Both the position numbers and the translations under genes were made by a program. This document shows positions 7,533 to 32,000 of a DNA stretch of 32,000 nucleotides, one piece after another (position 1 is the first letter of the stretch; each line of letters begins with the position of its first letter). This DNA comes from an archaeon (GTDB lineage: Archaea; Iainarchaeota; Iainarchaeia; Iainarchaeales; CSSED10-239). The stretch is from NCBI GenBank assembly GCA_035400625.1, contig DAOMZT010000001.1:270001-302000 (forward strand). Direction: 5' to 3'. Below the pieces are notes generated by a model that was not told the DNA's origin, did no database searches, and saw nothing but the letters and a program-made list of their open reading frames with translations.

Positions 7533-8033
7533 TTAACAGAACGGCAAGGCTTTTGCCATTTCTTTTAGGCTTTCAATTTGATATCTGTTTTCTAAAATAT
7601 CAATATATGTATCCCAATAGATCTTGTCTAGTTTCTTAGAATAAGTATTCTTAAAGCCATTAAGCACCTTGTCTCTATTTTGCATTTGTGTTTCTATTCT
7701 TGCAACAGTTGTTCTTGTTATGCACTCATTTTCTACAATTGCATATCTTACTGCCCTATCTAGATTTTTGGCTTCAAGATATAGATAAACATAATCTATG
7801 ATTGCTTGCGCCTCACTAGTCCCTACTCCCTTTAATTCAACAACATAGCCACCATGTTCATCTGGTATAAGGTCGCTTCTAGTCACCATGTATTTCTCAT
7901 TGATTTTTGCAATCTTGTTCATTTGATAGTTTGATATTGCAGTAATAAACAGATAAACTGCAATTGCAGTTATGATTAAAATTACCAACAATCCAAAAAT
8001 ATTAATTGGTTTTCTTTTATGTGCTAATGACAT
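7533..8033 (-). CDS. Hypothetical N-terminally membrane-anchored protein
   Basis: A single TM (INIFGLLVILIITAIAVYLFITAI) is followed by a soluble domain of about 125 aa with no motif I recognise. The start lies 1 nt after the valS stop and the stop lies 10 nt before the bud32 start. Confidence 0.5.
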   Translation of the reverse strand: MSLAHKRKPINIFGLLVILIITAIAVYLFITAISNYQMNKIAKINEKYMVTRSDLIPDEHGGYVVELKGVGTSEAQAIIDYVYLYLEAKNLDRAVRYAIVENECITRTTVARIETQMQNRDKVLNGFKNTYSKKLDKIYWDTYIDILENRYQIESLKEMAKALPFC

Positions 8034-11575: not shown

Positions 11576-12865
11576 CTATTTCTGCAAGCCAAGATACAAG
11601 ATATTGTCTCTTTGTACATATGCTTGTATTTGCAAAGTTAAAGTTGTTTTATTAAGGTCTTGTGGGTAATCAACAAGTGCTTGAGTGCTTGTTTCTTCGT
11701 AGTTGTATTTCTTGTTCTCAATTATAAGATTGCTAGTATCAACATTAGCTATGGTCTTGTATTTTATATCTGTGAATCCGTATTTTTCAAGTATATTATT
11801 AATTTTAGAAATATCTATGTTTTCGTAATTTAGAATAGCGCTTATGTTTGTTTTTGGTTCATTAGTAATAACTGTGGCACCACTAATTTTTTTTATTTGT
11901 GTTTTAAGTTCTTGGTATTCGTTATCTTTTGTATCTTCATTTAAATAAACTTCTAAACTTAAATCTTCTTCATTTAAAGAATAATTTGAAAATTTATTTT
12001 CGTCTCTTAAGTTATCTAGAGCAATGCCCAATTCTTCTGTATTTTTGTCTTCTGGTATAGTAAACATTAGGTTTTGTGAGAAGCTAAATGTTATTTCAGT
12101 GTCATTATAGTCTGTTTTTATTTTTTCTTCAATTTCTTTTTTGTCTTTGGAGTATATTAATGTTGTTTGTGCATCTAGAAGTATTTTTGCATCATAACCA
12201 ATAACATTAAAATCTCCAGAGCTTATGAGCATTTGTGGATAGGAACTAAGATTATACATCTCTATTCCAGTGGCACTTAATAGCTTTTGGCCACTAAATG
12301 TAGCATAACAAGCAACAAATATGTTGTCTTCTTTTATTGTCTCAATATTAATTATTCCTTCAATAGGTGTTGCCCCAAAAGAATAAAGGATTTCTTGGTT
12401 GTTATCGTTTGTAAAGTTTACTTCTGCAGGAACTGAAAGCAAAGCGTATTGATACATCTCTATTGGCTCCTCAATAATGTTTAGTTCTTTTATCTTAGAA
12501 ACAATTTCTTGTTTTTTGTCTGCAAGAATATTAAGTGTAATAACTACATTAATGCTTCCATCTTCTGTTTGTCTAAAAGAAACATTTTTGCTTTTTAGGC
12601 CCTGTAGCTCTAATAGCTTGTTATCAATAGATGCTTGATCATAATCAACAGGTTTGCCTGCCACAATTATTTGTGGAAATACTTCTAGGACATTTGCATC
12701 AAACTGTGCATTATAGTTAACAGGCGTAAGATTTACATTTAAATCTGAGTTGATATCGCTACCAGGTTTTGCTCTATCCCCCCCAGTAGTCATTATTGCA
12801 AATATTGACCCAACAAAAAGTAACACTAAAAGTATAGAGAAAATCGTTTTATTATCTAGTTTCAT
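11576..12865 (-). CDS. Hypothetical secreted/membrane-anchored acidic protein
   Basis: The N-terminal signal anchor is 'IFSILLVLLFVGSIFAIM'. The remaining ~400 aa are Asn/Asp/Glu-rich with many N-x-S/T sequons. I recognise no family. Confidence 0.5.
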   Translation of the reverse strand: MKLDNKTIFSILLVLLFVGSIFAIMTTGGDRAKPGSDINSDLNVNLTPVNYNAQFDANVLEVFPQIIVAGKPVDYDQASIDNKLLELQGLKSKNVSFRQTEDGSINVVITLNILADKKQEIVSKIKELNIIEEPIEMYQYALLSVPAEVNFTNDNNQEILYSFGATPIEGIINIETIKEDNIFVACYATFSGQKLLSATGIEMYNLSSYPQMLISSGDFNVIGYDAKILLDAQTTLIYSKDKKEIEEKIKTDYNDTEITFSFSQNLMFTIPEDKNTEELGIALDNLRDENKFSNYSLNEEDLSLEVYLNEDTKDNEYQELKTQIKKISGATVITNEPKTNISAILNYENIDISKINNILEKYGFTDIKYKTIANVDTSNLIIENKKYNYEETSTQALVDYPQDLNKTTLTLQIQAYVQRDNILYLGLQK

Positions 12866-13983: not shown

Positions 13984-14718
13984 TCAAGAAAAGGCGAAAT
14001 AAAAAACAACAAAAAGAATCGCCAAAACAATCAAACTGACTTGCCAGTTTTTTATCATATATTTTAATAATTCAAATAGCGCTTTAAATATTCCAACAAT
14101 AAAATTTAACAAATACTCAAAGAATTTTTTAGGGTGCTTGATATCTTTAATCGTTTCTGTGAAAATCTCGCTATTGCTTTTTTTTCTTTTTACTATTTTT
14201 TTGAAATTATTTATTTTTGAAGTCACGCCATCAAAATAAATTTCTAAATTTTCAGCATCGCATCTCCAGATTGGTATGTAGATTTGTTCAAAGCCACTTA
14301 AAGAGATATTGTTTTTTTCTGCACTAAACTTACAGGCCAGCATTTTAGTTATTGTCTCTTGTGCTTCACTTTTCTTAACTATAGATTTCTTAATTCTAAT
14401 CTCTACCTTTTCTACAAAAGAAACATCTAAGCGTTCTATAACCTTAGGGGTTGTAATATCTAAAAGCTTTAAAAATTCATCCTCAACTTTGTTAGTCAAA
14501 GAATTAAGTGCTGTTTGTGCAGAGATGTGCTGATATTTGCCTTCTTTATTTTTACAATCAATATCATAGAAACAGACCCAATAAGGTGTGATATTAAGGT
14601 GAATATTATCTTTTGTAATCTTTACCTTATACCCTTTTTTGTCAAACTCTTTTTGGAATATTGAAATAGCTTCCTCAAGAGTTATTTTGACAGGAAAGGA
14701 TAATTTATTTAATTCCAT
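13984..14718 (-). CDS. Hypothetical tail-anchored membrane protein with an internal duplication
   Basis: A C-terminal TM (VSLIVLAILFVVFYFAFS) sits at the extreme end. Two similar modules end in 'ITPYWVCFYDID' and 'IYIPIWRCDAEN'. The start lies 7 nt after the sepF stop. Confidence 0.5.
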   Translation of the reverse strand: MELNKLSFPVKITLEEAISIFQKEFDKKGYKVKITKDNIHLNITPYWVCFYDIDCKNKEGKYQHISAQTALNSLTNKVEDEFLKLLDITTPKVIERLDVSFVEKVEIRIKKSIVKKSEAQETITKMLACKFSAEKNNISLSGFEQIYIPIWRCDAENLEIYFDGVTSKINNFKKIVKRKKSNSEIFTETIKDIKHPKKFFEYLLNFIVGIFKALFELLKYMIKNWQVSLIVLAILFVVFYFAFS

Positions 14719-18161: not shown

Positions 18162-19376
18162 ATGGCAGAGAATATATTCTATACTTTTTTAAACGAAAAT
18201 TCAGTTTTTACTGATAAGTCTAAAATTTCACCGCATTATGCTCCTGAAAAATTACCTTTCAGAGATGAGCAGATAAAAGACTTATCTTTGTGGCTATCTC
18301 CTGTTCTAAAAAAAGCAAAGCCACACAACATCTTTGTATATGGCAAAGTAGGAACTGGAAAAACAACAGTTGTAAGGCATGTAATGTCCCAGCTTGAACT
18401 TTTTGCAAAAGATCAACACCTGCCATTATTGCCTGTTTATCTTAATTGTAGAAATTATCAAACCAAATATACCGTTCTAGTATATTGTGTTCAGTTATTT
18501 TATCCTGACCAGAATTTCTTTGGTTATTCTAGGTCTTTTATTTATGATAAGTTCTTAACTTACATTAAAGAAAATAAAATTAATTTTGTTGTTGTTCTTG
18601 ATGAGATAGATAAAATCAAGGATAAAGAAATTGATGACTTGATTTACACCTTAACAAGAGCAAATGATGAGCTTGAAGGCGGGTCAGTTTCAATCATAGG
18701 CATTTCAAACAATCTTTTCTTCAAGAATAATCTTGACTCAAGAACAAAAAGCTCTCTTTGTGAACAAGAGGCTGTCTATCCTCCTTATAATGCTGAAGAG
18801 TTAAGAGCAATCTTAAATCAAAGAATAGATCTAGCATTTAAAAAAGATGTAGTTAGTGATTCTGCAATTAATGCAGCCGCTGCAATTGCTGCAAAGGAGT
18901 CTGGAGATGCTAGACGTGCAGTTATGTTGCTACTTAGAGCAGGAGAGATTGCAGATATTAAAGGGCACACAAAAGTCACAGATAAAGAAGTATATGAAGC
19001 TAAGGAAAAAGTTGAGCAGGAAGTTATGAAAAGCATGGTTCTTACTCTTCCTATTCAATTACAGCTTGTTCTTTTTGCTATTGCTCAAGGTTCTTTAAAG
19101 CCAAAAGGAGTTATTGGTTTAACTGGCCAATATATGGAAACAAATATCTTACATTCCGGAGAGATCTATGACAAATATTGTGCTCTTTGTAATAAGTACT
19201 CTGAAAAAGCAGTAACTATAAGATGGTTTAGAGAGTATATCAATGAACTTGAAACCTATGGTTTTATTTCAACAACAATTTCTGGCAAAGGCGTAAAAGG
19301 CAACACCACCTTGATAAGATTAGGTATTGATGCCCAAACAATCATTGATCTTTTAAAATCTGAATTTTCTGAGTAA
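18162..19376 (+). CDS. cdc6: Orc1/Cdc6 replication initiator
   Basis: 'LPFRDEQIKDL' precedes Walker A 'GKVGTGKTT' and Walker B 'VVVLDEIDK'. Also present are the sensor region 'IGISNN', 'GDARRAVMLLRAG' and a C-terminal winged helix. Confidence 0.9.
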   Translation: MAENIFYTFLNENSVFTDKSKISPHYAPEKLPFRDEQIKDLSLWLSPVLKKAKPHNIFVYGKVGTGKTTVVRHVMSQLELFAKDQHLPLLPVYLNCRNYQTKYTVLVYCVQLFYPDQNFFGYSRSFIYDKFLTYIKENKINFVVVLDEIDKIKDKEIDDLIYTLTRANDELEGGSVSIIGISNNLFFKNNLDSRTKSSLCEQEAVYPPYNAEELRAILNQRIDLAFKKDVVSDSAINAAAAIAAKESGDARRAVMLLLRAGEIADIKGHTKVTDKEVYEAKEKVEQEVMKSMVLTLPIQLQLVLFAIAQGSLKPKGVIGLTGQYMETNILHSGEIYDKYCALCNKYSEKAVTIRWFREYINELETYGFISTTISGKGVKGNTTLIRLGIDAQTIIDLLKSEFSE

Positions 19377-19442
19377 TGTCCAATTTGGCACCATTACTCC
19401 CATTTATATATCTTTTTTTGCATATATTATTTGTGATTATTT

Positions 19443-19982
19443 ATGGATGATTCTAAAAAGATTCTAGACCCAATAAGGATTAAGATTTTATCTTCTATGA
19501 GAAAGCAGGGCGTTCTGGTTCCAAATATTAGGCAATTAAAAAAACACACTGGTTTTCATAGAGCAACAATAAAATCCTCAATTGAGTTAATGGAAAAGCA
19601 AGGACTAATCAAGCATTATATCCCAACAGTAAATTCAAGTATTGCAGGTTATGGTTTAAGGGTTTGGACTTTTCTTCAAATGGACATCTCTAATCAAAAA
19701 CTTTTAAACAATCTTAAAAAAATAATGACAAAGATTCCTAACATCTATCATTGTTCAGAAGTTATAACAGAAAGAGGTTATAATATCGCAATTGGTTATT
19801 TGGCAAAGAATGTTGAAGACTATTATAATAATATTCAAAGAAAATATTTTATTAATTATCCAGATATCTATAATAACATAAAAGATAGAAGCGTTTTTTA
19901 TCTTTCTGAGCCAACCTATATTCAGAAAAGCCATAGTAGTACAATTATTGACATTCTTGAAAAGGAACAAGGTATAGAATAA
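19443..19982 (+). CDS. Winged-helix transcriptional regulator, Lrp/AsnC-like architecture
   Basis: The N-terminal 'LDPIRIKILSSMRKQG...IRQLKKHTGFHRATIKSSIELMEKQGLIKHY' looks like an HTH. An alpha/beta domain of about 90 aa follows in the position of a RAM domain. The match is weaker than a canonical Lrp. Confidence 0.5.
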   Translation: MDDSKKILDPIRIKILSSMRKQGVLVPNIRQLKKHTGFHRATIKSSIELMEKQGLIKHYIPTVNSSIAGYGLRVWTFLQMDISNQKLLNNLKKIMTKIPNIYHCSEVITERGYNIAIGYLAKNVEDYYNNIQRKYFINYPDIYNNIKDRSVFYLSEPTYIQKSHSSTIIDILEKEQGIE

Positions 19983-24703: not shown

Positions 24704-25585
24704 ATGAGTACTAAAAAAGACAAGGTTGTAAAATCAAAAAAAAAATTAAAAAGTTTATATAGATTATTTATACCTATTGCTCATCTTTTAAGATCTAAAG
24801 AATTTGATGAAAAATTAATGCAAGCAGATATACTTGAAGAACCAGAGGTTTATCTCTCTAGATATTTTTTTTATGCAATATTTATTCCCTTGATTTTAGT
24901 AATCTTATTTTCTGCATTATTGATTGCTTTTCATTATACAGAATATCTTAAAGTTTTATTCATTGTTGGTTTTTCATCAGTATTTATAATATTGATTTAT
25001 GCTTTGGTTAATCCATATATTAAAATCGGAACAAAGGTTGGAGAAATAAAAAATAATTTACCATTAGCAATACTTAGTATGTCTAGTGTTGCAGAGTCTG
25101 GAGCCCCACCAGAAGCTATGTTTCACACATCTACAATGAAGTCTGAAACTCCTAATATCAGCAGAGAATTTGAAAAAATAAATAAATATTTAAGTTTGGG
25201 CTTATCTTTACCACAAGCTATGGAACATGTTTGTGATAAAACTCCCTCTCCTGAGCTTAAGAAATTTTTAATGGAATTAAAATCTAACATAGAGGCAGGG
25301 GGATCTTTACCAGAGTTTATGAAAAAAAAAGCACAACATGCTCAATTCACTTATAAGCTAATGCTTGATAATCAAAATAAAAAAGCAGAGACCTTTGGTG
25401 ACATATATTCTGCAATTGTTATTGCTGGGCCTTTATTTTTGTTTTCTGCAATAATGCTCTTGGGCATGATAGGTGGTGGAGGGCTAGGTGGCTTAAGTGT
25501 TGAAGCGTTATTGGTGATAGGGGTTTTTGGCCTTGTACCATTAGTTAATATTTTATTTATTATTATTTTGCAGTTTATATCATAA
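24704..25585 (+). CDS. Type IV pilus/archaellum platform protein, first T2SSF-domain half (FlaJ/TadB-like)
   Basis: A TM pair is followed by a cytoplasmic helical domain ('LPLAILSMSSVAESGAPPEAMF...LGLSLPQAMEHV...ELKKFLMELKSNIEAGGSL') and further TMs. This is the T2SSF topology and motif pattern. Confidence 0.7.
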   Translation: MSTKKDKVVKSKKKLKSLYRLFIPIAHLLRSKEFDEKLMQADILEEPEVYLSRYFFYAIFIPLILVILFSALLIAFHYTEYLKVLFIVGFSSVFIILIYALVNPYIKIGTKVGEIKNNLPLAILSMSSVAESGAPPEAMFHTSTMKSETPNISREFEKINKYLSLGLSLPQAMEHVCDKTPSPELKKFLMELKSNIEAGGSLPEFMKKKAQHAQFTYKLMLDNQNKKAETFGDIYSAIVIAGPLFLFSAIMLLGMIGGGGLGGLSVEALLVIGVFGLVPLVNILFIIILQFIS

Positions 25586-25596
25586 GAGGAATAAAA

Positions 25597-26409
25597 ATGA
25601 AATTAAGTCCAAGAATGGAATATTTACTTGATGCAGCCGCAAAAGGTGCAATTGGTTCACTTATACTTGGAATACTTTTACTTAGAACAAATTTCTTTAT
25701 ATTTTGTATTTTCCCAACAATCATCGCAATAGGTATTGCTTCAATAGTTTATACTAAAAAAATTAAGTCTCTAGAATCCAATCTATTTGTTTTTTTAGGA
25801 GATCTTAAAAATCTTCTTCAAGGTGGGATGAATATAGTTACTTCTATGGAGGTTCTTTCAGATCATGATTATGGTGCCTTAAACACATATATTAGAAGAA
25901 TAACTGCTCAAATAAAAATAGGTGTGCCATTTGAAACTTCACTTGTTGAAGTTTTTTCAGAAGTAGATAGTCCAATGTTTAATAAGATTGCAAATGTTAT
26001 TGCAGAAACTATGAAACATGGTGGTAATCTAATTAAGATATTTAGTGCGGTAGCCAATTATGTAAAATTAATTGATGAGATGGGAGAAGAAAGAAGGGCC
26101 AAAACTTTTTCTACAGTTTTTTCTTCATATTTTATGTTTTTTATATTTATTGCAATTATTTTAACAATACAGATTGTATTCTTGCCAATGTTAAAATCAA
26201 ATAGCATAACTACTTCGGGCACACCAATAGAAGAAATTCCATTTAATTCCTATTTCTTATATCTTTTGATTATTCAAGCAAGTTTTGCAGGTCCAATTAT
26301 CGGTAAAATTTCAGAAGGTAATGCGATAGCAGGAATAAAACATTCTATTATATTACTTGTAATTTCCATTCCAATCTACATGATAGTTTCAATGTTGTTT
26401 ATTAAATAA
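25597..26409 (+). CDS. Type IV pilus/archaellum platform protein, second T2SSF-domain half (FlaJ/TadC-like)
   Basis: The architecture is the same as the first half ('LGDLKNLLQGGMNIVTSMEVL...IRRITAQIKIGVPFETSL...IAETMKHGGNL'). The start lies 11 nt after the previous stop and has its own GAGG Shine-Dalgarno motif. Confidence 0.7.
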   Translation: MKLSPRMEYLLDAAAKGAIGSLILGILLLRTNFFIFCIFPTIIAIGIASIVYTKKIKSLESNLFVFLGDLKNLLQGGMNIVTSMEVLSDHDYGALNTYIRRITAQIKIGVPFETSLVEVFSEVDSPMFNKIANVIAETMKHGGNLIKIFSAVANYVKLIDEMGEERRAKTFSTVFSSYFMFFIFIAIILTIQIVFLPMLKSNSITTSGTPIEEIPFNSYFLYLLIIQASFAGPIIGKISEGNAIAGIKHSIILLVISIPIYMIVSMLFIK

Positions 26410-26455
26410 GTTAGATTTATAAAAATTATGAAATAAATATAAATAGGATAAAAAT

Positions 26456-26926
26456 ATGTTAAAATTAAAAATTACAAAAAAGGGAATATCTCCACTTATT
26501 GCAACTATTCTTTTAGTTGCTGTATCTTTAGCTCTTGCAGGAATCTTATATTCTTGGGCATCTCATAATGCAAGCAACACTGTATCAAGTGTTACTGATG
26601 GTCAACAGCAACGAATAGAATGTTCTGCAATTAATTTGTTTATAGAAGAAGGCTGTTCTTATGATACAGATACTGGAATTAATCTTATTATAAGTGACTA
26701 TTCAAGTGTAAATATAGATGAGAATATAGAAATTACTGTTGTTGATATAGATAACAGGTCTAAAACAGCAAGCATTCCTTCAAACTTTCAAGGTGGCATA
26801 ATGGCAGTAAACAGTTCTGTTCTTTCTGATCCAAATGCTCTTAATGGGCTTGGAAAAATACAGAGGGTTTATGTGTTTATTAAGCGTTGCCCAGAAAGAA
26901 AAGCAACGACTATGAGTTGTGATTAA
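26456..26926 (+). CDS. Archaeal type IV pilin, Pilin_N (DUF1628) type, paralog 1
   Basis: The class III signal peptide and conserved N-terminus read 'KITKKG|ISPLIATILLVAVSLALAGILYSW'. Cys pairs are C-x10-C after the helix and a C-terminal C-x9-C. Confidence 0.8.
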   Translation: MLKLKITKKGISPLIATILLVAVSLALAGILYSWASHNASNTVSSVTDGQQQRIECSAINLFIEEGCSYDTDTGINLIISDYSSVNIDENIEITVVDIDNRSKTASIPSNFQGGIMAVNSSVLSDPNALNGLGKIQRVYVFIKRCPERKATTMSCD

Positions 26927-26940
26927 AATAGGTTTTATTC

Positions 26941-27426
26941 ATGAAAAAGTTAAAGGCACTTAGTATTTTAATAACTAGCATTTTATTAATTCTTGTTTCT
27001 GTTTCATTAATTATTATTCTCTTGTCCTGGAGTAGAAATTTTACAACAACAAATCTAAATTCAGCAAATGAAGTGATAAATCAAGAATGTGATAAAGCAA
27101 CTATTCAAATTGCCGATTGTATTATTAATAATGATGGAAATGTAGTTTTGGTAATTAAAAATACAAGCACACAATATATCTTTGATTCTTCTGATGCTCT
27201 GTTAGTTTCTATATATAATGATTCTGGTGTTATGGATGCGGAAAAAGAAATAACTTTGTCTTCTGGTTTAACTTGGAATGGTCTAAAAGAAGGTGAGACA
27301 ATTATTGCAAATATTAAACCAGAAACACAGTCTTTAACTTCTGAACCAGGTGCATGGATAAATGTAACTTTAAGATCTACAAATTGTCCGTTAGCTGCTA
27401 CAACATACTATGGTTGTCATAGATAA
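26941..27426 (+). CDS. Archaeal type IV pilin-like protein, paralog 2 (divergent N-terminus)
   Basis: The N-terminus is 'MKKLKA|LSILITSILLILVSVSLIIILLSW'. It shares the body plan of its neighbours: C-x9-C, a 'VVLVIKNTS' strand and a C-terminal 'STNCP...GC'. Confidence 0.7.
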   Translation: MKKLKALSILITSILLILVSVSLIIILLSWSRNFTTTNLNSANEVINQECDKATIQIADCIINNDGNVVLVIKNTSTQYIFDSSDALLVSIYNDSGVMDAEKEITLSSGLTWNGLKEGETIIANIKPETQSLTSEPGAWINVTLRSTNCPLAATTYYGCHR

Positions 27427-27475
27427 GCTTTAAATATCTTTTTATTAATAATATAAATATTTTAATATTTAATTT

Positions 27476-27481
27476 AGGAGG
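27476..27481 (+). promoter_or_regulatory. Strong Shine-Dalgarno (AGGAGG) for pilin paralog 3
   Basis: aggagg lies 7 nt upstream of the ATG at 27489. It is the best ribosome-binding site I noticed in the pilin cluster, where paralogs 1 and 2 have only 'tagg(a)'. An AT-rich spacer of about 60 nt precedes it. Confidence 0.5.
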
Positions 27482-27488
27482 AAATAAA

Positions 27489-27950
27489 ATGAATATTAAG
27501 AAAAAAGCAATAGAGCCAATAGTTGCAACAATTCTTTTAGTCGTAGTTGCAGTTATTTTGGTTGTTATAGTTCTTGCTTGGGGTAAGAATTTTACAAACG
27601 AGGGTTTAAATAAAGCTGGTGGTGTAACTAGTGATAATTGTATGGGTGCAACAATTGCAATTTCAAATTGTGATTGGAATGGCTCAGCAAAAACAACCAC
27701 CTTTTTAATAAAAAACACAAGTGACACATTTACTTTTCCAGCAGATGATTTTACTTGTGGTGTTTTAGAGGATGGAAATATTACAAACAATAACTTAAAC
27801 GGTGCATTAAATCAGACCGCAGCATTAGGTCCTGGAGCACAACAAGTATTAACCTGTTCAGGTACAAACATCGTTGCAGATTCAGTTACCTTAAAAGTAT
27901 GGTCAAAAGCTTGCCCAAATAACGCATCAGCAGATTTAAAACACTGCTAG
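27489..27950 (+). CDS. Archaeal type IV pilin, Pilin_N (DUF1628) type, paralog 3 (candidate major pilin)
   Basis: The N-terminus is 'MNIKKKA|IEPIVATILLVVVAVILVVIVLAWG'. It has C-x9-C, a 'TTFLIKNTS' strand, one extra Cys pair and a C-terminal 'SKACP...HC'. There are six N-x-S/T sequons. Confidence 0.8.
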   Translation: MNIKKKAIEPIVATILLVVVAVILVVIVLAWGKNFTNEGLNKAGGVTSDNCMGATIAISNCDWNGSAKTTTFLIKNTSDTFTFPADDFTCGVLEDGNITNNNLNGALNQTAALGPGAQQVLTCSGTNIVADSVTLKVWSKACPNNASADLKHC

Positions 27951-27964
27951 TTGTTTAAATAAAA

Positions 27965-28426
27965 ATGTGTAAAATTATGATTTCCAAAAAAGGAGTGTCA
28001 CCAATAATTGCAACTGTACTTTTAGTTGTTTTAGCTTTAATATTGGTCGTCATACTTCTTTCTTGGGGTCAAAATTTTATAAATAGAAACACATCTGATG
28101 TGGATAACACTATTGACAGAAAATGCCTAGGTGCAGGAATTACAATAAACAATTGTAATTACAATGATCAAACAAATACTCTTTCTTTTATTATTGTAAA
28201 TTCAGGAAAGGTTAATTTTTCGAAAGACCACAATCTTAATCTTATTCTAATTGATGCAGAAGGCAATCTAGATAATGATAATCAAAACATCATCAATAGC
28301 CAAGCCTTTAATAGATTAGATTCTCAAAAGATAGTAATTGACCACTATGCCGCTACAACACCAATAGATGTGGAAGTAAGAAGCACCCAATGTGTTAATT
28401 ATTTTGCAAAAGTTTCTTGTAATTAG
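27965..28426 (+). CDS. Archaeal type IV pilin, Pilin_N (DUF1628) type, paralog 4
   Basis: The N-terminus is 'MISKKG|VSPIIATVLLVVLALILVVILLSWG'. It has C-x9-C, a 'LSFIIVNSG' strand and a C-terminal 'STQCV...SC'. The ATG at 27977 (MISKKG) is a plausible alternative start. Confidence 0.8.
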   Translation: MCKIMISKKGVSPIIATVLLVVLALILVVILLSWGQNFINRNTSDVDNTIDRKCLGAGITINNCNYNDQTNTLSFIIVNSGKVNFSKDHNLNLILIDAEGNLDNDNQNIINSQAFNRLDSQKIVIDHYAATTPIDVEVRSTQCVNYFAKVSCN

Positions 28427-28926
28427 AATTTTTCTATTTTTAAAAATTGTATCTTTTCTTCCTTATCAACTAAGGCTATAACAAATTTGGCGTTTATGGT
28501 TGTTGCAAGCCTTTCTGATTTTATAATCTGCTTTGTGTAGATTTTTGTGTTTTTGAAAACATCTACAACCATTTCTGTATGAGTGTGTTCGCCAGCCTTT
28601 GATTTTTTATAAACTCTAAAATCAAATCCAAAGATGTTTCCGTCTTTTACCACATAGCCTTTATTCATTAGTTCTTTAAACACAAGATATTTCTCTGAAA
28701 AGTCTGAAATTTCTTTGTTGCATTTTTTTTCTAATTCCTTTTGGCTTATTGCTTTCTTGTTTTCATCAGCAATAGTTATTTTCTTCTTTTCTAGAAAATA
28801 AAGGCATTCAAAAAGATCTAAGTAAATCTCAAGGCCTTTTCTAAAGCCAAAGCCTTTCTGAGTTAATTGGCTTTTTAGATTATTGTCTTTTACAAGCCCG
28901 CGATTTTTTTCTATTATTACTTTCAT
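28423..28926 (-). CDS. endA: tRNA-splicing endonuclease EndA (short, homotetramer-type size)
   Basis: 'NKGYVVKDGNIFGFDFRVYKK...HTHTEMVV' matches the catalytic C-terminal domain pattern (G.KFG.DF.vY....H). Lys is followed by 'FVIALVD'. The length is 167 aa. The stop overlaps the convergent pilin stop by 4 nt. Confidence 0.8.
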   Translation of the reverse strand: MKVIIEKNRGLVKDNNLKSQLTQKGFGFRKGLEIYLDLFECLYFLEKKKITIADENKKAISQKELEKKCNKEISDFSEKYLVFKELMNKGYVVKDGNIFGFDFRVYKKSKAGEHTHTEMVVDVFKNTKIYTKQIIKSERLATTINAKFVIALVDKEEKIQFLKIEKF

Positions 28927-28941
28927 GTTTTTCTTTCTTTT

Positions 28942-29229
28942 TTATTTATATAATGTAAATAAATTTCTATCAACACCATAGAACAACCCAATTCTTACAC
29001 CTGCATCGATCCAGCCATAAGCATAAGAATAAGAGGCTAGTGCCCTTGTAAAGTCGCCTTTTTCTTCTAATACCATTCCATCCTTAAGATAGTTGTTTGC
29101 CATCTCTAGGTAGTTATCTGCCATATCTTTAAGGAAGGACTCGTTTTCTATATTTATTTTTATAGTTGCTAATGCTTTTTCAAGTAATCCTCTATACTTT
29201 ATACAATATTCTTTAACATCTGTATTCAT
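28942..29229 (-). CDS. DUF357-family protein
   Basis: 'YLKDGMVLEEKGDFTRALASYSYAYGWIDAGVRIGL' matches the conserved DUF357 core (..gd...Al....YA.GWLDAG.R.G). Confidence 0.7.
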   Translation of the reverse strand: MNTDVKEYCIKYRGLLEKALATIKINIENESFLKDMADNYLEMANNYLKDGMVLEEKGDFTRALASYSYAYGWIDAGVRIGLFYGVDRNLFTLYK

Positions 29230-29950
29230 TTATTCCATCTCTTTCAATATCATTTAATGTTGCACAGATTATTAAGCTTTGTGGAAAGCTTTTGCATTTT
29301 ATTTTCTTGTATTCCAAAAAGTCAAAAGTAATGATTTCTTGATCAATTCCTGCAACTCCACAAAGTCCAACACACACTACATCTTTTAGTTTCTTATCTT
29401 TTTCATTGTCAATTTCTTCAAGTATCTGGCAAGCCTCAAAAATACTCATAAACTTTTTTTTGTCAGTCTTAATATCAAGAAGGCAAAGAGTATGTGCATT
29501 GTTCTTTAGATTTTCAATTATACAATCATAAAAGCTAGTAGGCCTGTAGTTGCCATCTGGATAGACAATGCTTGTAGTCTTTCCAAACTTATACTCAAAT
29601 AGTCCAGAAATGCCTCTATAGTTAAAGATAGAAATACCTGCAATTATTTTAATATCTATCTTTTTCTTTTTTGCTTCTTCAATCAATGTAAAATGAGTGG
29701 TTGCTGATAATGGGTTGCCAATAACAAGAAGACAGGAGCCATCTTTAAGATATTTTTTTTCCTGTTCCAGTTCCGTTCTGTTCAGTTGCATTATTTTCTT
29801 TTCTATTATCTCTTCTAGTTCTTTTAGGTCTCCTTGTGAGAAGATATTGGTGTAGTTATCAATATACACTTCTGTGCAGTTTCTTATACAATCCATTGCT
29901 TCAAGAGTAAGTTGTTTAGGTTTTAATCCAACTCCGATTATGTAAAACAT
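29213..29950 (-). CDS. dph5: Diphthine synthase (Dph5)
   Basis: The N-terminal 'MFYIIGVGLKPKQLTLEAMDCIRNCTEVYIDNYTN' and 'LLVIGNPLSATTH' indicate the tetrapyrrole-methylase fold typical of Dph5. Confidence 0.85.
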   Translation of the reverse strand: MFYIIGVGLKPKQLTLEAMDCIRNCTEVYIDNYTNIFSQGDLKELEEIIEKKIMQLNRTELEQEKKYLKDGSCLLVIGNPLSATTHFTLIEEAKKKKIDIKIIAGISIFNYRGISGLFEYKFGKTTSIVYPDGNYRPTSFYDCIIENLKNNAHTLCLLDIKTDKKKFMSIFEACQILEEIDNEKDKKLKDVVCVGLCGVAGIDQEIITFDFLEYKKIKCKSFPQSLIICATLNDIERDGINEYRC

Positions 29951-29952
29951 TC

Positions 29953-30348
29953 TTAACTATAAACTCCAATTTCTATATATATCTTATTATTGGAATTATT
30001 AATATACTTTATGGAATTAGAAAGAGTTGTTGTTTTTTCTATGCCAGAGTAATTCATTTCTTTTCTTTTGTTGTTTATTCTAATATAGCCAGGGGTAAGT
30101 GGGAATAGCAAAAGATAGTTTTTTTCTAAAGTTTCAAGATTATCAATTTTAAGATATTGTGCAGTTATTAGAAGGTCATTGATTTTTTGCGACTTTAATA
30201 ATTCAACATTATTTTTTGCTAAATTTTCTGAAGCAATTGTTTGCATGGTTAATATCAAAAGCGAGATAAAGATTAATGCAAAAAGCCCATCAATTACAAA
30301 GATTTGCCCATTATTTGCATTTTGCAAATTCCAAAATTTTAAAGCCAT
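29953..30348 (-). CDS. Small pilin-like protein with putative class III signal peptide (G|Q type), minor pilin candidate 4
   Basis: The N-terminus is 'MALKFWNLQNANNG|QIFVIDGLFALIFISLLILTM'. A single hydrophobic helix is followed by a domain of about 90 aa. It shares the 'GQ-x-x-V-[LI]-D' N-terminus with the upstream ORF. Confidence 0.5.
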   Translation of the reverse strand: MALKFWNLQNANNGQIFVIDGLFALIFISLLILTMQTIASENLAKNNVELLKSQKINDLLITAQYLKIDNLETLEKNYLLLFPLTPGYIRINNKRKEMNYSGIEKTTTLSNSIKYINNSNNKIYIEIGVYS

Positions 30349-30724
30349 TATTAATCACTATTCCTCTTTTTATACTCAATTCAATTTCTGTTGTTTCTGT
30401 TTGATAAATCACAATATCTGATAGTTTGATTCTGCAGATTTTATTTTTTTTAAGTTCTTTTTCAAACACCAATAGAGATCTCAAGTCCAAGATGTTTTGA
30501 TAACAAAGGCTTTGATGATTAATTTCTGTGAATGCCAAGTAGTCACAGTCACTAACCATTTTATCAACAAACAAAAGCAATTCAAGCTTTTCAGTTTCTT
30601 TTTGATTTTCTATTTGTTCTTTAGCATAGTTCTCAAAGAACAACACTTCAAAATATAAAATAAGGATTAGGCACAGAGAAAAGAACAAAACATCAAGTAC
30701 TATTGCTTGCCCCTTTGATTTCAT
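30311..30724 (-). CDS. Small pilin-like protein with putative class III signal peptide (G|Q type), minor pilin candidate 3
   Basis: The N-terminus is 'MKSKG|QAIVLDVLFFSLCLILILYF'. The KGQ junction resembles EppA-type archaeal pilins and TadE-like pseudopilins. It overlaps both neighbouring ORFs, by 32 nt and 38 nt. Confidence 0.55.
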   Translation of the reverse strand: MKSKGQAIVLDVLFFSLCLILILYFEVLFFENYAKEQIENQKETEKLELLLFVDKMVSDCDYLAFTEINHQSLCYQNILDLRSLLVFEKELKKNKICRIKLSDIVIYQTETTEIELSIKRGIVINNGFKILEFAKCK

Positions 30725-30908
30725 GTTTCTCCCATTTTTCTTCCTGATAATATTTTTCTTTTATAATTTCTATATCCCCTTTTACATTTTTGCTTTTTTC
30801 AAACTTTTCTTTAAAGCCAAGATTGACATTCACAAAAAAGCCAAGCACGATAATGATAATTAAAACACACAATATCATTTCAAGAGTAATTATCCCTTTT
30901 TTATTCAA
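30693..30908 (-). CDS. Very small pilin-like protein (71 aa) with a bacterial-style prepilin N-terminus, minor pilin candidate 2
   Basis: The N-terminus is 'MNKKG|IITLEMILCVLIIIIVLGFF'. It has a short basic leader, Gly at -1, Glu at +5 and a hydrophobic helix, followed by a charged tail of about 40 aa. Confidence 0.55.
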   Translation of the reverse strand: MNKKGIITLEMILCVLIIIIVLGFFVNVNLGFKEKFEKSKNVKGDIEIIKEKYYQEEKWEKHEIKGASNST

Positions 30909-31414
30909 GTATATATCACCACTTCTATTGTGTAATTTTTTGGAAAAGTAAAAGTTGTTTTGGAATATGATGTTTTCTGTTCAAAGCCAAGGTATTTGTT
31001 TTTTGCTAGCCCGTTTGTTATAGTATATCTCTTAACATAAACATTTGGCATTGGCCTTAAAACAATGGTTTTTGTTATTTCTTGTAGTTCTAAAAGATTT
31101 ACTTTTTGTTTTTTCTTTGTATTGATATCAATAACAAACCATTCTTCTGTTTTGGTATCAAGACCAGAAAGATAATTTACTACCTTGGTGTTTATGTGCG
31201 AATTTAGTGTTATTGGGTCTGTGTTAGGAATAGCAAGTTCGTGCTTAACCATTTCTTCAAAATTAATTGCTGCACTGTGCTTTTTCGTGCTTTGTGATTT
31301 TACAATTACAAAATCTAGGTTGCTTTCAATTCTTTCATTACCAGCAATAGACAAGAAAATAAGTGTAAACAACAACACTCCAAGACTAAGAAAGCCTTTG
31401 TTTTTTGTAGCCAT
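30905..31414 (-). CDS. Small pilin-like protein with putative class III signal peptide, minor pilin candidate 1
   Basis: The N-terminus is 'MATKNKG|FLSLGVLLFTLIFLSIAG', followed by a beta-rich-looking domain of about 140 aa. It forms an ATGA overlap with the next ORF. Confidence 0.5.
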   Translation of the reverse strand: MATKNKGFLSLGVLLFTLIFLSIAGNERIESNLDFVIVKSQSTKKHSAAINFEEMVKHELAIPNTDPITLNSHINTKVVNYLSGLDTKTEEWFVIDINTKKKQKVNLLELQEITKTIVLRPMPNVYVKRYTITNGLAKNKYLGFEQKTSYSKTTFTFPKNYTIEVVIYT

Positions 31415-31578
31415 TAGATATTTCTTGATTTCTTTCCTTTATTTAACCAGCTGTTTGTTTTTTTTGTGTTTTTGAAACAATCGCCTCTTTGCTTTAAGTT
31501 TTTACAAAAAATCTAACAAATGTTTTTAAATAGCTCTATCTACAATAAATATATTAATATCAAAAAACGGAATAAGCT

Positions 31579-32000
31579 TTGAAAAAGAACATATTTGTTA
31601 AGGATTTTTCTGACACAACAATTAGTATCTTTAAAGATGAGTCTGTATTCTATCCAAGCTATTTGCCAGAAGACATAAAAGCAAGAGATAAGGAGATTCA
31701 AGAGTTAAGCTATAATTTACGGCCAATCTCTGAAAACAAAAAAGCAAGAAACATCTTAATCTTTGGCCCGCCAGGAACTGGAAAAACCTTAACCTCTAAG
31801 TTTGTGATTAAGCAACTCTCAGAATTTACTCAAAAAGCAAGATCAATTTATATCAATGCGATAGAAGACAACACAAGGTTTGCATTATATTGCAAACTTC
31901 TTTCGCTTTATAATTCTCCACTTCCAAGAAGAGGACTAGGCATTGACGAGTTAATTTCAAGAGTAAAAGAAGAACTTGGCAAAAACGATTTTATTCCAGT
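31579..32000 (+). CDS. Second Orc1/Cdc6 paralog (partial; runs off the window)
   Basis: This ORF is not in the track. The frame opens after a TAA at 31573-31575. TTG at 31579 is the only plausible start before the AAA+ core. The translation reads ..FKDESVFYPSYLPEDIKARDKEIQELSYNLRPI..ILIFGPPGTGKTLTSKFVIKQL.. This gives Walker A plus the typical 'LP.R..E...L' N-terminal motif. Confidence 0.8.
   Translation, partial: MKKNIFVKDFSDTTISIFKDESVFYPSYLPEDIKARDKEIQELSYNLRPISENKKARNILIFGPPGTGKTLTSKFVIKQLSEFTQKARSIYINAIEDNTRFALYCKLLSLYNSPLPRRGLGIDELISRVKEELGKNDFIP

Follow-up and report, generated by a model that had tools for sequence, protein, structure and literature searches.

The 32,000-nucleotide (nt) stretch of archaeal DNA analysed here (assembly GCA_035400625.1, contig DAOMZT010000001.1, positions 270,001 to 302,000; hereafter the window) comes from a DPANN archaeon of the Diapherotrites/Iainarchaeota and probably encodes part of a single archaeal type IV pilus of the adhesion type, whose genes would be distributed over at least three separate modules, two of them in the window. 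All ten pilus-type open reading frames (ORFs) that an earlier reading of the sequence alone (the sequence-only reading) had picked out are present between 24704 and 31414. That reading had taken them for a type IV pilus-like gene set of a DPANN archaeon, a proposal borne out by a T2SSF platform, by pilins of archaeal type and by the names attached to homologues of the window proteins (Candidatus Diapherotrites, Iainarchaeum and 'ainarchaeum'), which show the guess at DPANN to have been right.

The first module lies on the plus strand and opens with the platform, which is encoded as two ORFs: an N-terminal half of 293 amino acids (aa) (24704-25585, +; Pfam T2SSF 1.8e-15) and a C-terminal half of 270 aa (25597-26409, +; Pfam T2SSF 2.1e-15), the latter ORF beginning 11 nt downstream of the former. 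Each has one T2SSF domain, as had been claimed from the sequence alone, with a single match to PF00482 at ∼57 bits (cutoff 25.2). On the NCBIfam ArlJ/FlaJ model of 555 positions, the first ORF covers positions 10-232 and the second 296-545. Homologues of the first ORF fell into 66 clusters, nearly all of them 264-350 aa long with a single T2SSF domain (two shorter ones measure 240 and 264 aa). Moreover, the N-half is orthologous to the first platform ORF, and not to the second, of the comparison loci L011, L009 and L010 (39, 35 and 26% identity), and the C-half is orthologous to the second (44, 30 and 30%). The split and the N-then-C order are thus kept in homologues down to 26% identity, and the same pairing in such distant relatives argues that the split is old and is no frameshift.

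To place this design, we surveyed 80 GTDB-species loci around relatives of the assembly ATPase with N-half and C-half profiles. The platform adjoins the ATPase in 54 of the 80 (median gap 162 nt), and in 53 of these 54 DPANN loci the N-half and the C-half are encoded by ORFs of their own. Two one-T2SSF platform genes that arose by gene fission are known from Epd-like and Tad systems (Denise 2019, PMC6668835), two tadC genes from clade 1 and many euryarchaeal clade 2 loci (Makarova 2016, PMC4858521), and two platform genes from system 1 and from subsystem 4A of some DPANN (Sivabalasarma & Albers 2026, bioRxiv 10.64898/2026.04.22.720090). For DPANN, a platform made from two genes is the norm and has been documented before; the view that the arrangement had not been described must be given up. 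As a separate observation, the N-half gene is much longer in many other DPANN (∼400-1000 aa in L060-L112, from Woesearchaeota, Nanoarchaeota and similar lineages, against 293 aa here), which points to a large N-terminal extension there, while the C-half stays at ∼280-310 aa in the same loci.

Four paralogous pilin ORFs follow the platform (26456-28426), with N-termini of the (K)(G/A)/(I/V/L)(S/E)P(L/I)IAT type, where the slash marks the predicted cleavage site here and below. These are pilin 1 (26456-26926, +; 156 aa; KKG/ISPLIATILLV; two Cys pairs), pilin 2 (26941-27426, +; 161 aa; KLKA/LSILITSILLI; a divergent paralogue), pilin 3 (27489-27950, +; 153 aa; KKKA/IEPIVATILLV) and pilin 4 (27965-28426, +; 153 aa; SKKG/VSPIIATVLLV). 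They had been described as tandem Pilin_N-type pilins. Their archaeal type was confirmed, three of the four passing the archaellin/type IV pilin N-terminal domain model TIGR02537 (31.3, 21.3 and 30.7 bits for pilins 1, 3 and 4; cutoff 20), but Pfam Pilin_N (PF07790) itself stayed below its threshold of 25.2 bits with pilin 1 (12.8) and pilin 4 (13.5), matched only over model positions 1-30 of 78, and gave no match for pilins 2 and 3. Pilins 1 and 4 also have a UpsA-like N-terminus (1.1e-7 and 4.7e-7). Pilin 2, which had no family match above threshold in Pfam or NCBIfam, was recognized by a class III signal screen. All four pilins align together, and two Cys positions are invariant among them.

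For this simple screen we took every ORF of at least 40 aa, with every start, across the whole 32 kb. It returned eight matches, two of which are internal starts of membrane proteins; the six others fall within the pilus locus and comprise the four plus-strand pilins, all with a predicted signal, and two small minus-strand ORFs, S2 and S3. The expectation of class III signals on the ten ORFs therefore held for these six, while S1 and S4 failed the strict rule.

The second module consists of the minus-strand ORFs S1 (30905-31414, −; 169 aa; KNKG/FLSLGVLLFTLIFLSIAG), the first gene of the array, S2 (30693-30908, −; 71 aa; NKKG/IITLE), S3 (30311-30724, −; 137 aa; KSKG/QAIVLD) and S4 (29953-30348, −; 131 aa; ANNG/QIFVID). 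They overlap one another, and each starts with a basic or polar stretch followed by G and a hydrophobic stretch of ∼20 aa. S3 and S4 have glutamine at position +1; acidic residues lie at +5 in S2 and at +6 in S3 and S4. To follow these features, orthologues were taken from three other species with 55-69% platform identity. Those of S1 (in L007, L118 and L117) keep a K(G/A)/F-hydrophobic N-terminus; those of S2 read G/QLSLE and G/NLSLE, giving a family design of G/xxSLE with the acidic residue at +5; the S3 family has (G/A)/Qxxxx(D/E) and up to four conserved Cys positions, two of them invariant in a four-species alignment; and S4 orthologues read KKG/FVFSLD and SKG/QIFTID, for a family design of G/QIFxID. 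The suggestion that these small ORFs have class III-like N-termini of a different kind is upheld by motifs conserved in their orthologues.

Family assignments point in the same direction at low scores. The S2 orthologue of L007 matches PF04021 (Class_IIIsignal) with an E-value of 8.4e-4 and TadF with 0.009; two S2 orthologues reach 19.7 (that of L007) and 14.7 bits against PF04021, both under its cutoff of 23.7, and S2 of the window matches TadF (0.17) and ComGE (0.053) weakly. S2 is a candidate for a short Epd/Flp-like pilin, and S1, S3 and S4 as candidate minor pilins. The N-terminal profiles of S3 and S4 resemble each other (hhalign E 1.5e-5, 80% probability over 40 columns), and a comparison of S1 with the pilin profile gave no similarity. 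An exhaustive search of 1.84 billion representative proteins found 16 relatives of S3; ∼15 full-length homologues keep the N-terminal motif and the Cys pattern. These are real, clade-restricted genes. Runs of four to five small ORFs of class III type come directly after the split platform in the distant relative L009, a pattern that would be expected for minor pilins. S1-S4 are probably minor pilins.

A pilus of this kind needs a motor, and the sequence-only reading had noted that none is encoded beside the platform. Indeed, no ORF of at least 90 aa in the window matches T2SSE, the KaiC-type ATPase family or Peptidase_A24, which also confirms the reported lack of a KaiC-like FlaH; nor did the 10 kb beyond the window end hold a T2SSE ATPase, KaiC/FlaH or A24 peptidase. 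The absence is one of position only, as the machinery has its ATPase elsewhere in the genome. Two clusters of ATPases with the PF00437 T2SSE domain, 658 and 659 aa long, can be connected to the window locus. Cluster P0228 (HNW05742.1, HPV65918.1) lies on an 813,239-bp contig, matching the platform of cluster P0001 (HNW05401.1, HPV66124.1; 813,239 bp) in the same NCBI accession series. Likewise, cluster P0229 lies on a 520,848-bp contig, matching the contig with the window locus (Ga0499518_000003; 520,848 bp), and also occurs in JGI sample 3300049645, where the window locus is present too. Since contigs and accession series agree with those of the platform, we conclude that the genome of the window also codes, at another place, for an intact assembly ATPase. 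When JGI metagenome contigs were searched with the ATPase of Forterrea, the window's contig did not come up. The best matches in the Protein Data Bank were 2OAP (afGspE; 1.3e-92, 314 bits) and FlaI (1.2e-73, 252 bits), followed by CpaF (3.4e-38, 135 bits); by these scores the protein is a standard archaeal assembly ATPase, closest to GspE of Archaeoglobus fulgidus and to FlaI.

The ATPase belongs to a third module, found in the window's organism outside the window (L113, 7827-14246), orthologous in L012, L014 and L033-L050 and conserved throughout the clade. Three of its ORFs (310, 117 and 159 aa) have an N-terminal transmembrane (TM) segment or begin in class III-like fashion; besides the ATPase of 658 aa there are a coiled-coil protein of 116 aa, a surface protein of 434 aa and a protein of 321 aa with eight TM segments. 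In L113, two small ORFs have pilin-like N-termini (MNKG/FTYIITTMLLI and MTKS/FEVAISIILL), and large proteins have an N-terminal TM anchor. In L011 the corresponding genes run in the order coiled-coil protein, T2SSE ATPase, N-half, C-half, pilins. The ATPase of that locus is called as two ORFs (L011, 2074-4295; 534 and 206 aa), the second of which starts in the middle of the ATPase domain, probably owing to a frameshift or an assembly error.

The separation of ATPase and platform extends beyond one genome. Contig JASEYN010000020.1 of assembly GCA_030154545.1 (281,921 bp) carries the window's 13-gene order, with the platform near 144.9 kb and an ATPase (P0145, found with the L011 ATPase as query) at 211-213 kb, a distance of ∼66 kb. 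In the Forterrea-like clade of Iainarchaeota (L033-L050), all 16 determinable loci lack a platform within the 3.5-9 kb flanks of the ATPase. ATPase and platform are neighbours in the sister Iainarchaeota (L052-L054, L089) and in the majority of other DPANN, and because of this the uncoupling is a derived, clade-specific rearrangement of Forterrea-like Iainarchaeota. The Ca. Forterrea genome paper does not discuss pili.

The sequence-only reading had also expected a prepilin peptidase beside the platform and remarked on its absence. None is there (no Peptidase_A24 match in the window), but such adjacency is not reliable in archaea, where pibD and flaK are commonly unlinked to pilus operons. EppA is only 'often' part of the locus context, and a peptidase is present in most archaeal genomes with a secretion ATPase (Makarova 2016, PMC4858521). 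On both counts, the lack of a peptidase gene in the window is to be expected. The 321-aa eight-TM protein next to the ATPase, which is present in 35 fetched loci, was considered as a divergent EppA-like peptidase and rejected: it has no Pfam match, and its 15 orthologues share no invariant Asp, which rules out an aspartic peptidase. When all 119 fetched loci were screened for proteins with at least five TM segments and a GxGD-like motif, only the platform halves and this 321-aa protein came up.

A further set of genes in L117 bears on pilin maturation. There, on the minus strand (18668-19798), a 62-aa ORF scores above the PF04021 threshold (RA/QISAE) and is accompanied by a 131-aa QxSxE ORF; these QxSxE ORFs adjoin a DUF3267/M50B-like membrane protein with a HELAH motif, of which an orthologue lies ∼9 kb past the window end (L001, 228-743). 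Searching the parts of the window's genome that were read with the PF04021-positive short pilins of L117 (tblastn) gave no match. One could imagine that the pilus of the Forterrea-like clade is permanently distributed over three unlinked modules, with a clade-restricted four-gene tip or minor-pilin set in a housekeeping operon (dph5, DUF357, endA), and that its pilins mature without a canonical A24 peptidase, for example through this DUF3267/M50B-like protease; we regard this combination as improbable.

We favour a more conventional scheme for the three modules. The N-half and C-half of FlaJ/TadC type, encoded as two polypeptides by the plus-strand module, would together form a pseudo-dimeric platform, on which the hexameric ATPase would dock. 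One or more of the four paralogous pilins would polymerize into the shaft of an adhesion filament, after an unlinked A24 peptidase had removed the short basic leader at G/A, and S1-S4 of the minus-strand module would be minor pilins, with which assembly is primed or the filament capped. This second module would be co-transcribed with dph5, DUF357 and endA. The third module, outside the window, would supply the assembly ATPase and the small coiled-coil protein, together with surface proteins and more ORFs of class III-like type. A role in host attachment is plausible for a DPANN archaeon.

Several points weigh against this scheme. No A24 prepilin peptidase was found in the ∼64 kb of the genome that were read (window, L001 and L113). 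The window copies of S1-S4 have no significant match in Pfam or NCBIfam. S1 and S4 fail the strict FlaFind-like class III rule, S1 because of charged residues after 18 hydrophobic residues; S4 has the least canonical signal, its window copy lacking K/R near the predicted cleavage site. Structure predictions with AlphaFold2 (AF2) were uninformative at predicted local distance difference test (pLDDT) values of 40-43: for S1, run as a single sequence, only helix 8-25 was predicted (pLDDT 40), and for pilin 1, run with the four-paralogue alignment, only the N-terminal helix 13-40 was confident (pLDDT 43). Finally, the placement of S1-S4 near pilus genes in relatives is weak evidence. Platform, pilins and S1-S4 do co-occur there, the kind of synteny to which the sequence-only reading had looked, but as the whole neighbourhood of ∼25 genes is collinear in those genomes, this counts for little. 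L117 departs from this gene content, with only three pilin ORFs and an S1 orthologue that is truncated or in fragments.

These points bear most directly on the possibility that only the plus-strand half, platform and four pilins, is a pilus, and that S1-S4 are unrelated small membrane or secreted proteins that lie nearby through collinearity. S1, S3 and S4 are without a significant family match, S1 does not resemble the pilin profile and has a low AF2 confidence, S1 and S4 do not pass the strict screen, and the neighbouring genes for Orc1/Cdc6, TatD, a GTPase, endA and dph5 are just as syntenic in L007, L117 and L118. We nevertheless consider this explanation unlikely, if the most serious of the alternatives: all four orthologue sets have a basic or polar residue, G/A and a hydrophobic helix at the extreme N-terminus; the Q at +1 and/or acidic residue at +5/+6 of S2-S4 is the signature of Epd/PF04021-type pilins, which an S2 orthologue matches with an E-value of 8.4e-4; four such genes overlap in a row; and in L009 the split platform is directly followed by runs of four to five small ORFs of class III type.

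The apparatus could also be a non-adhesive type IV filament device, for instance a bindosome-like structure or a pseudopilus for competence (DNA uptake), in which S1-S4 would serve as ComGD-GG-like minor pilins. DPANN archaea depend on external nucleotides, a four-gene minor-pilin-like set is present, and S2 matches ComGE (E 0.053; 13.6 bits, cutoff 49) and S3 matches ComGF (E 0.76; 10.5 bits, cutoff 27), both very weakly. Yet these matches fall far under the cutoffs, neither the window nor the ATPase locus has a ComEA/ComEC-like, DNA-processing or substrate-binding gene, and the characterized archaeal relatives with the same pilin type are adhesion pili (bioRxiv 10.64898/2026.04.22.720090; Makarova 2016, PMC4858521), which leaves such a device very improbable. 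Scarcely credible is a decaying remnant that has lost its motor or peptidase and can no longer build a filament. The stretch of ∼42 kb around the platform without an ATPase or peptidase would fit such decay, but the ATPase is intact in the same genome, none of the ten ORFs is broken and all are conserved in species whose platforms are 55-80% identical (with the exceptions seen in L117), and the S3 family keeps its length and Cys pattern.

An adhesion pilus in separate modules can be compared with several known systems. In Tad operons, tadB precedes tadC; the order here is N-half then C-half, collinear with an unsplit FlaJ, whereas Tad has the C-half-like tadB first. Unlike Tad, the locus has no secretin, TadZ or Flp-type major pilin, and its NCBIfam platform matches are to ArlJ/FlaJ and not to Tad models. 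What it shares with the bacterial Tad pilus (TadA, TadB, TadC) is a platform of two homologous one-domain proteins derived by gene fission (PMC6668835). The Epd pilus of Methanococcus maripaludis and the Epd-like clade (PMC6668835; clade 1 of Makarova, PMC4858521) resemble it in having two one-T2SSF platform genes, a trait that is not exclusive to the Epd-like/Tad clade, in pilins with Q at +1 (QxSxE, PF04021-type; the S2-S4 families here) and in the dispersal of components over several loci. In contrast to Epd, neither the window nor the ATPase locus L113 has an EppA, FlaH/KaiC or FleN/MinD/TadZ-like gene, although a KaiC-like gene precedes the split platform in the distant relative L009; and the likely shaft pilins are TIGR02537/Pilin_N-type proteins of ∼155 aa with a globular domain, compared with ∼70 aa for Epd pilins. 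That the ATPase is nearer to afGspE (314 bits) and FlaI (252) than to CpaF (135) does not favour membership of the Epd-like and Tad clade, with the scores read as a proxy.

Closest in gene content are the DPANN loci whose platform is encoded by two genes (system 1 and subsystem 4A, bioRxiv 10.64898/2026.04.22.720090; cluster 2 DPANN type IV pilus loci, Hamm 2024, PMC11291902), which likewise combine several class III pilins with one T2SSE ATPase that has a small coiled-coil protein at its side. The window's clade departs from them in the distance between ATPase and platform (16/16 loci; ∼66 kb in JASEYN010000020.1) and in the position of the minor-pilin-like genes, which here lie on the opposite strand behind three housekeeping genes. 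The euryarchaeal clade 2 adhesion pili, such as those of Haloferax volcanii (PilB/PilC; PMC4858521), share the tandem PilA/Pilin_N-like paralogues, not necessarily by the ATPase, and many clade 2 loci have two tadC-like genes, as here. Nothing in the present system was identified as arCOG02911 (250-550 aa), their signature minor pilin, and the S1-S4 set is restricted to its own clade.

The three housekeeping genes that separate the plus-strand half from S1-S4 are no pilus parts: endA (28423-28926, −; tRNA_int_endo 1.7e-19), a DUF357 gene (28942-29229, −; DUF357 2e-24) and a dph5-like methylase gene (29213-29950, −; TP_methylase 1.9e-14). Together with S1-S4 they are tightly packed on the same strand, with gaps or overlaps of −17 to +15 nt by their coordinates, and because of this packing the seven genes probably form one transcription unit. 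Diphthamide-pathway genes occur beside pilus genes twice in our material, dph5 here and a Diphthamide_syn gene beside a T2SSF gene in L010 (12365-13339), and a diphthamide-synthase-family PP-loop ATPase is co-transcribed with clade 1 pilus loci (Makarova 2016, PMC4858521); the vicinity may be a coincidence.

The window as a whole is AT-rich (G+C ∼30%) and contains housekeeping genes of archaeal type (S3Ae, NAC, ValRS, ThiI, SecDF, two Orc1/Cdc6, endA and dph5); tRNA and Rfam scans of it gave no matches. Its two Orc1/Cdc6 genes bracket the region (18162-19376, +; ∼31570-32000, +, running off the window end), and the 10 kb past the window end (L001) encode Orc1/Cdc6, PCNA, primase and pelota, with the PCNA and primase genes just beyond the end. 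The AT-rich spacer at 31415-31570 beside S1 may contain a replication origin; repeats were sought in the intergenic stretch preceding Orc1/Cdc6, with nothing convincing and no clear ORB-like repeat as the outcome. Three window ORFs without family assignment are possible surface proteins, namely those at 11576-12865 (−; 429 aa, N-terminal signal or TM anchor), 13984-14718 (−; 244 aa, C-terminal TM segment) and 7533-8033 (−; 166 aa, N-terminal TM segment).

Collectively, the locus is a real but largely ordinary archaeal type IV pilus gene set, and it leaves the general understanding of type IV filament function unchanged. What it adds is modest: the clade-wide uncoupling of ATPase and platform, and clade-specific candidate minor pilins inside a housekeeping gene array. 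As ATPase and platform are not adjacent in this clade, detection based on co-localization (MacSyFinder-type models for ordered replicons) would overlook the system or undercount it. DPANN archaea are believed to rely on contact with host cells, for which type IV pili are among the foremost candidates. For one clade of Diapherotrites/Iainarchaeota, the pilus set is now delimited to the platform halves, four candidate shaft pilins, four candidate minor pilins and an unlinked ATPase module.

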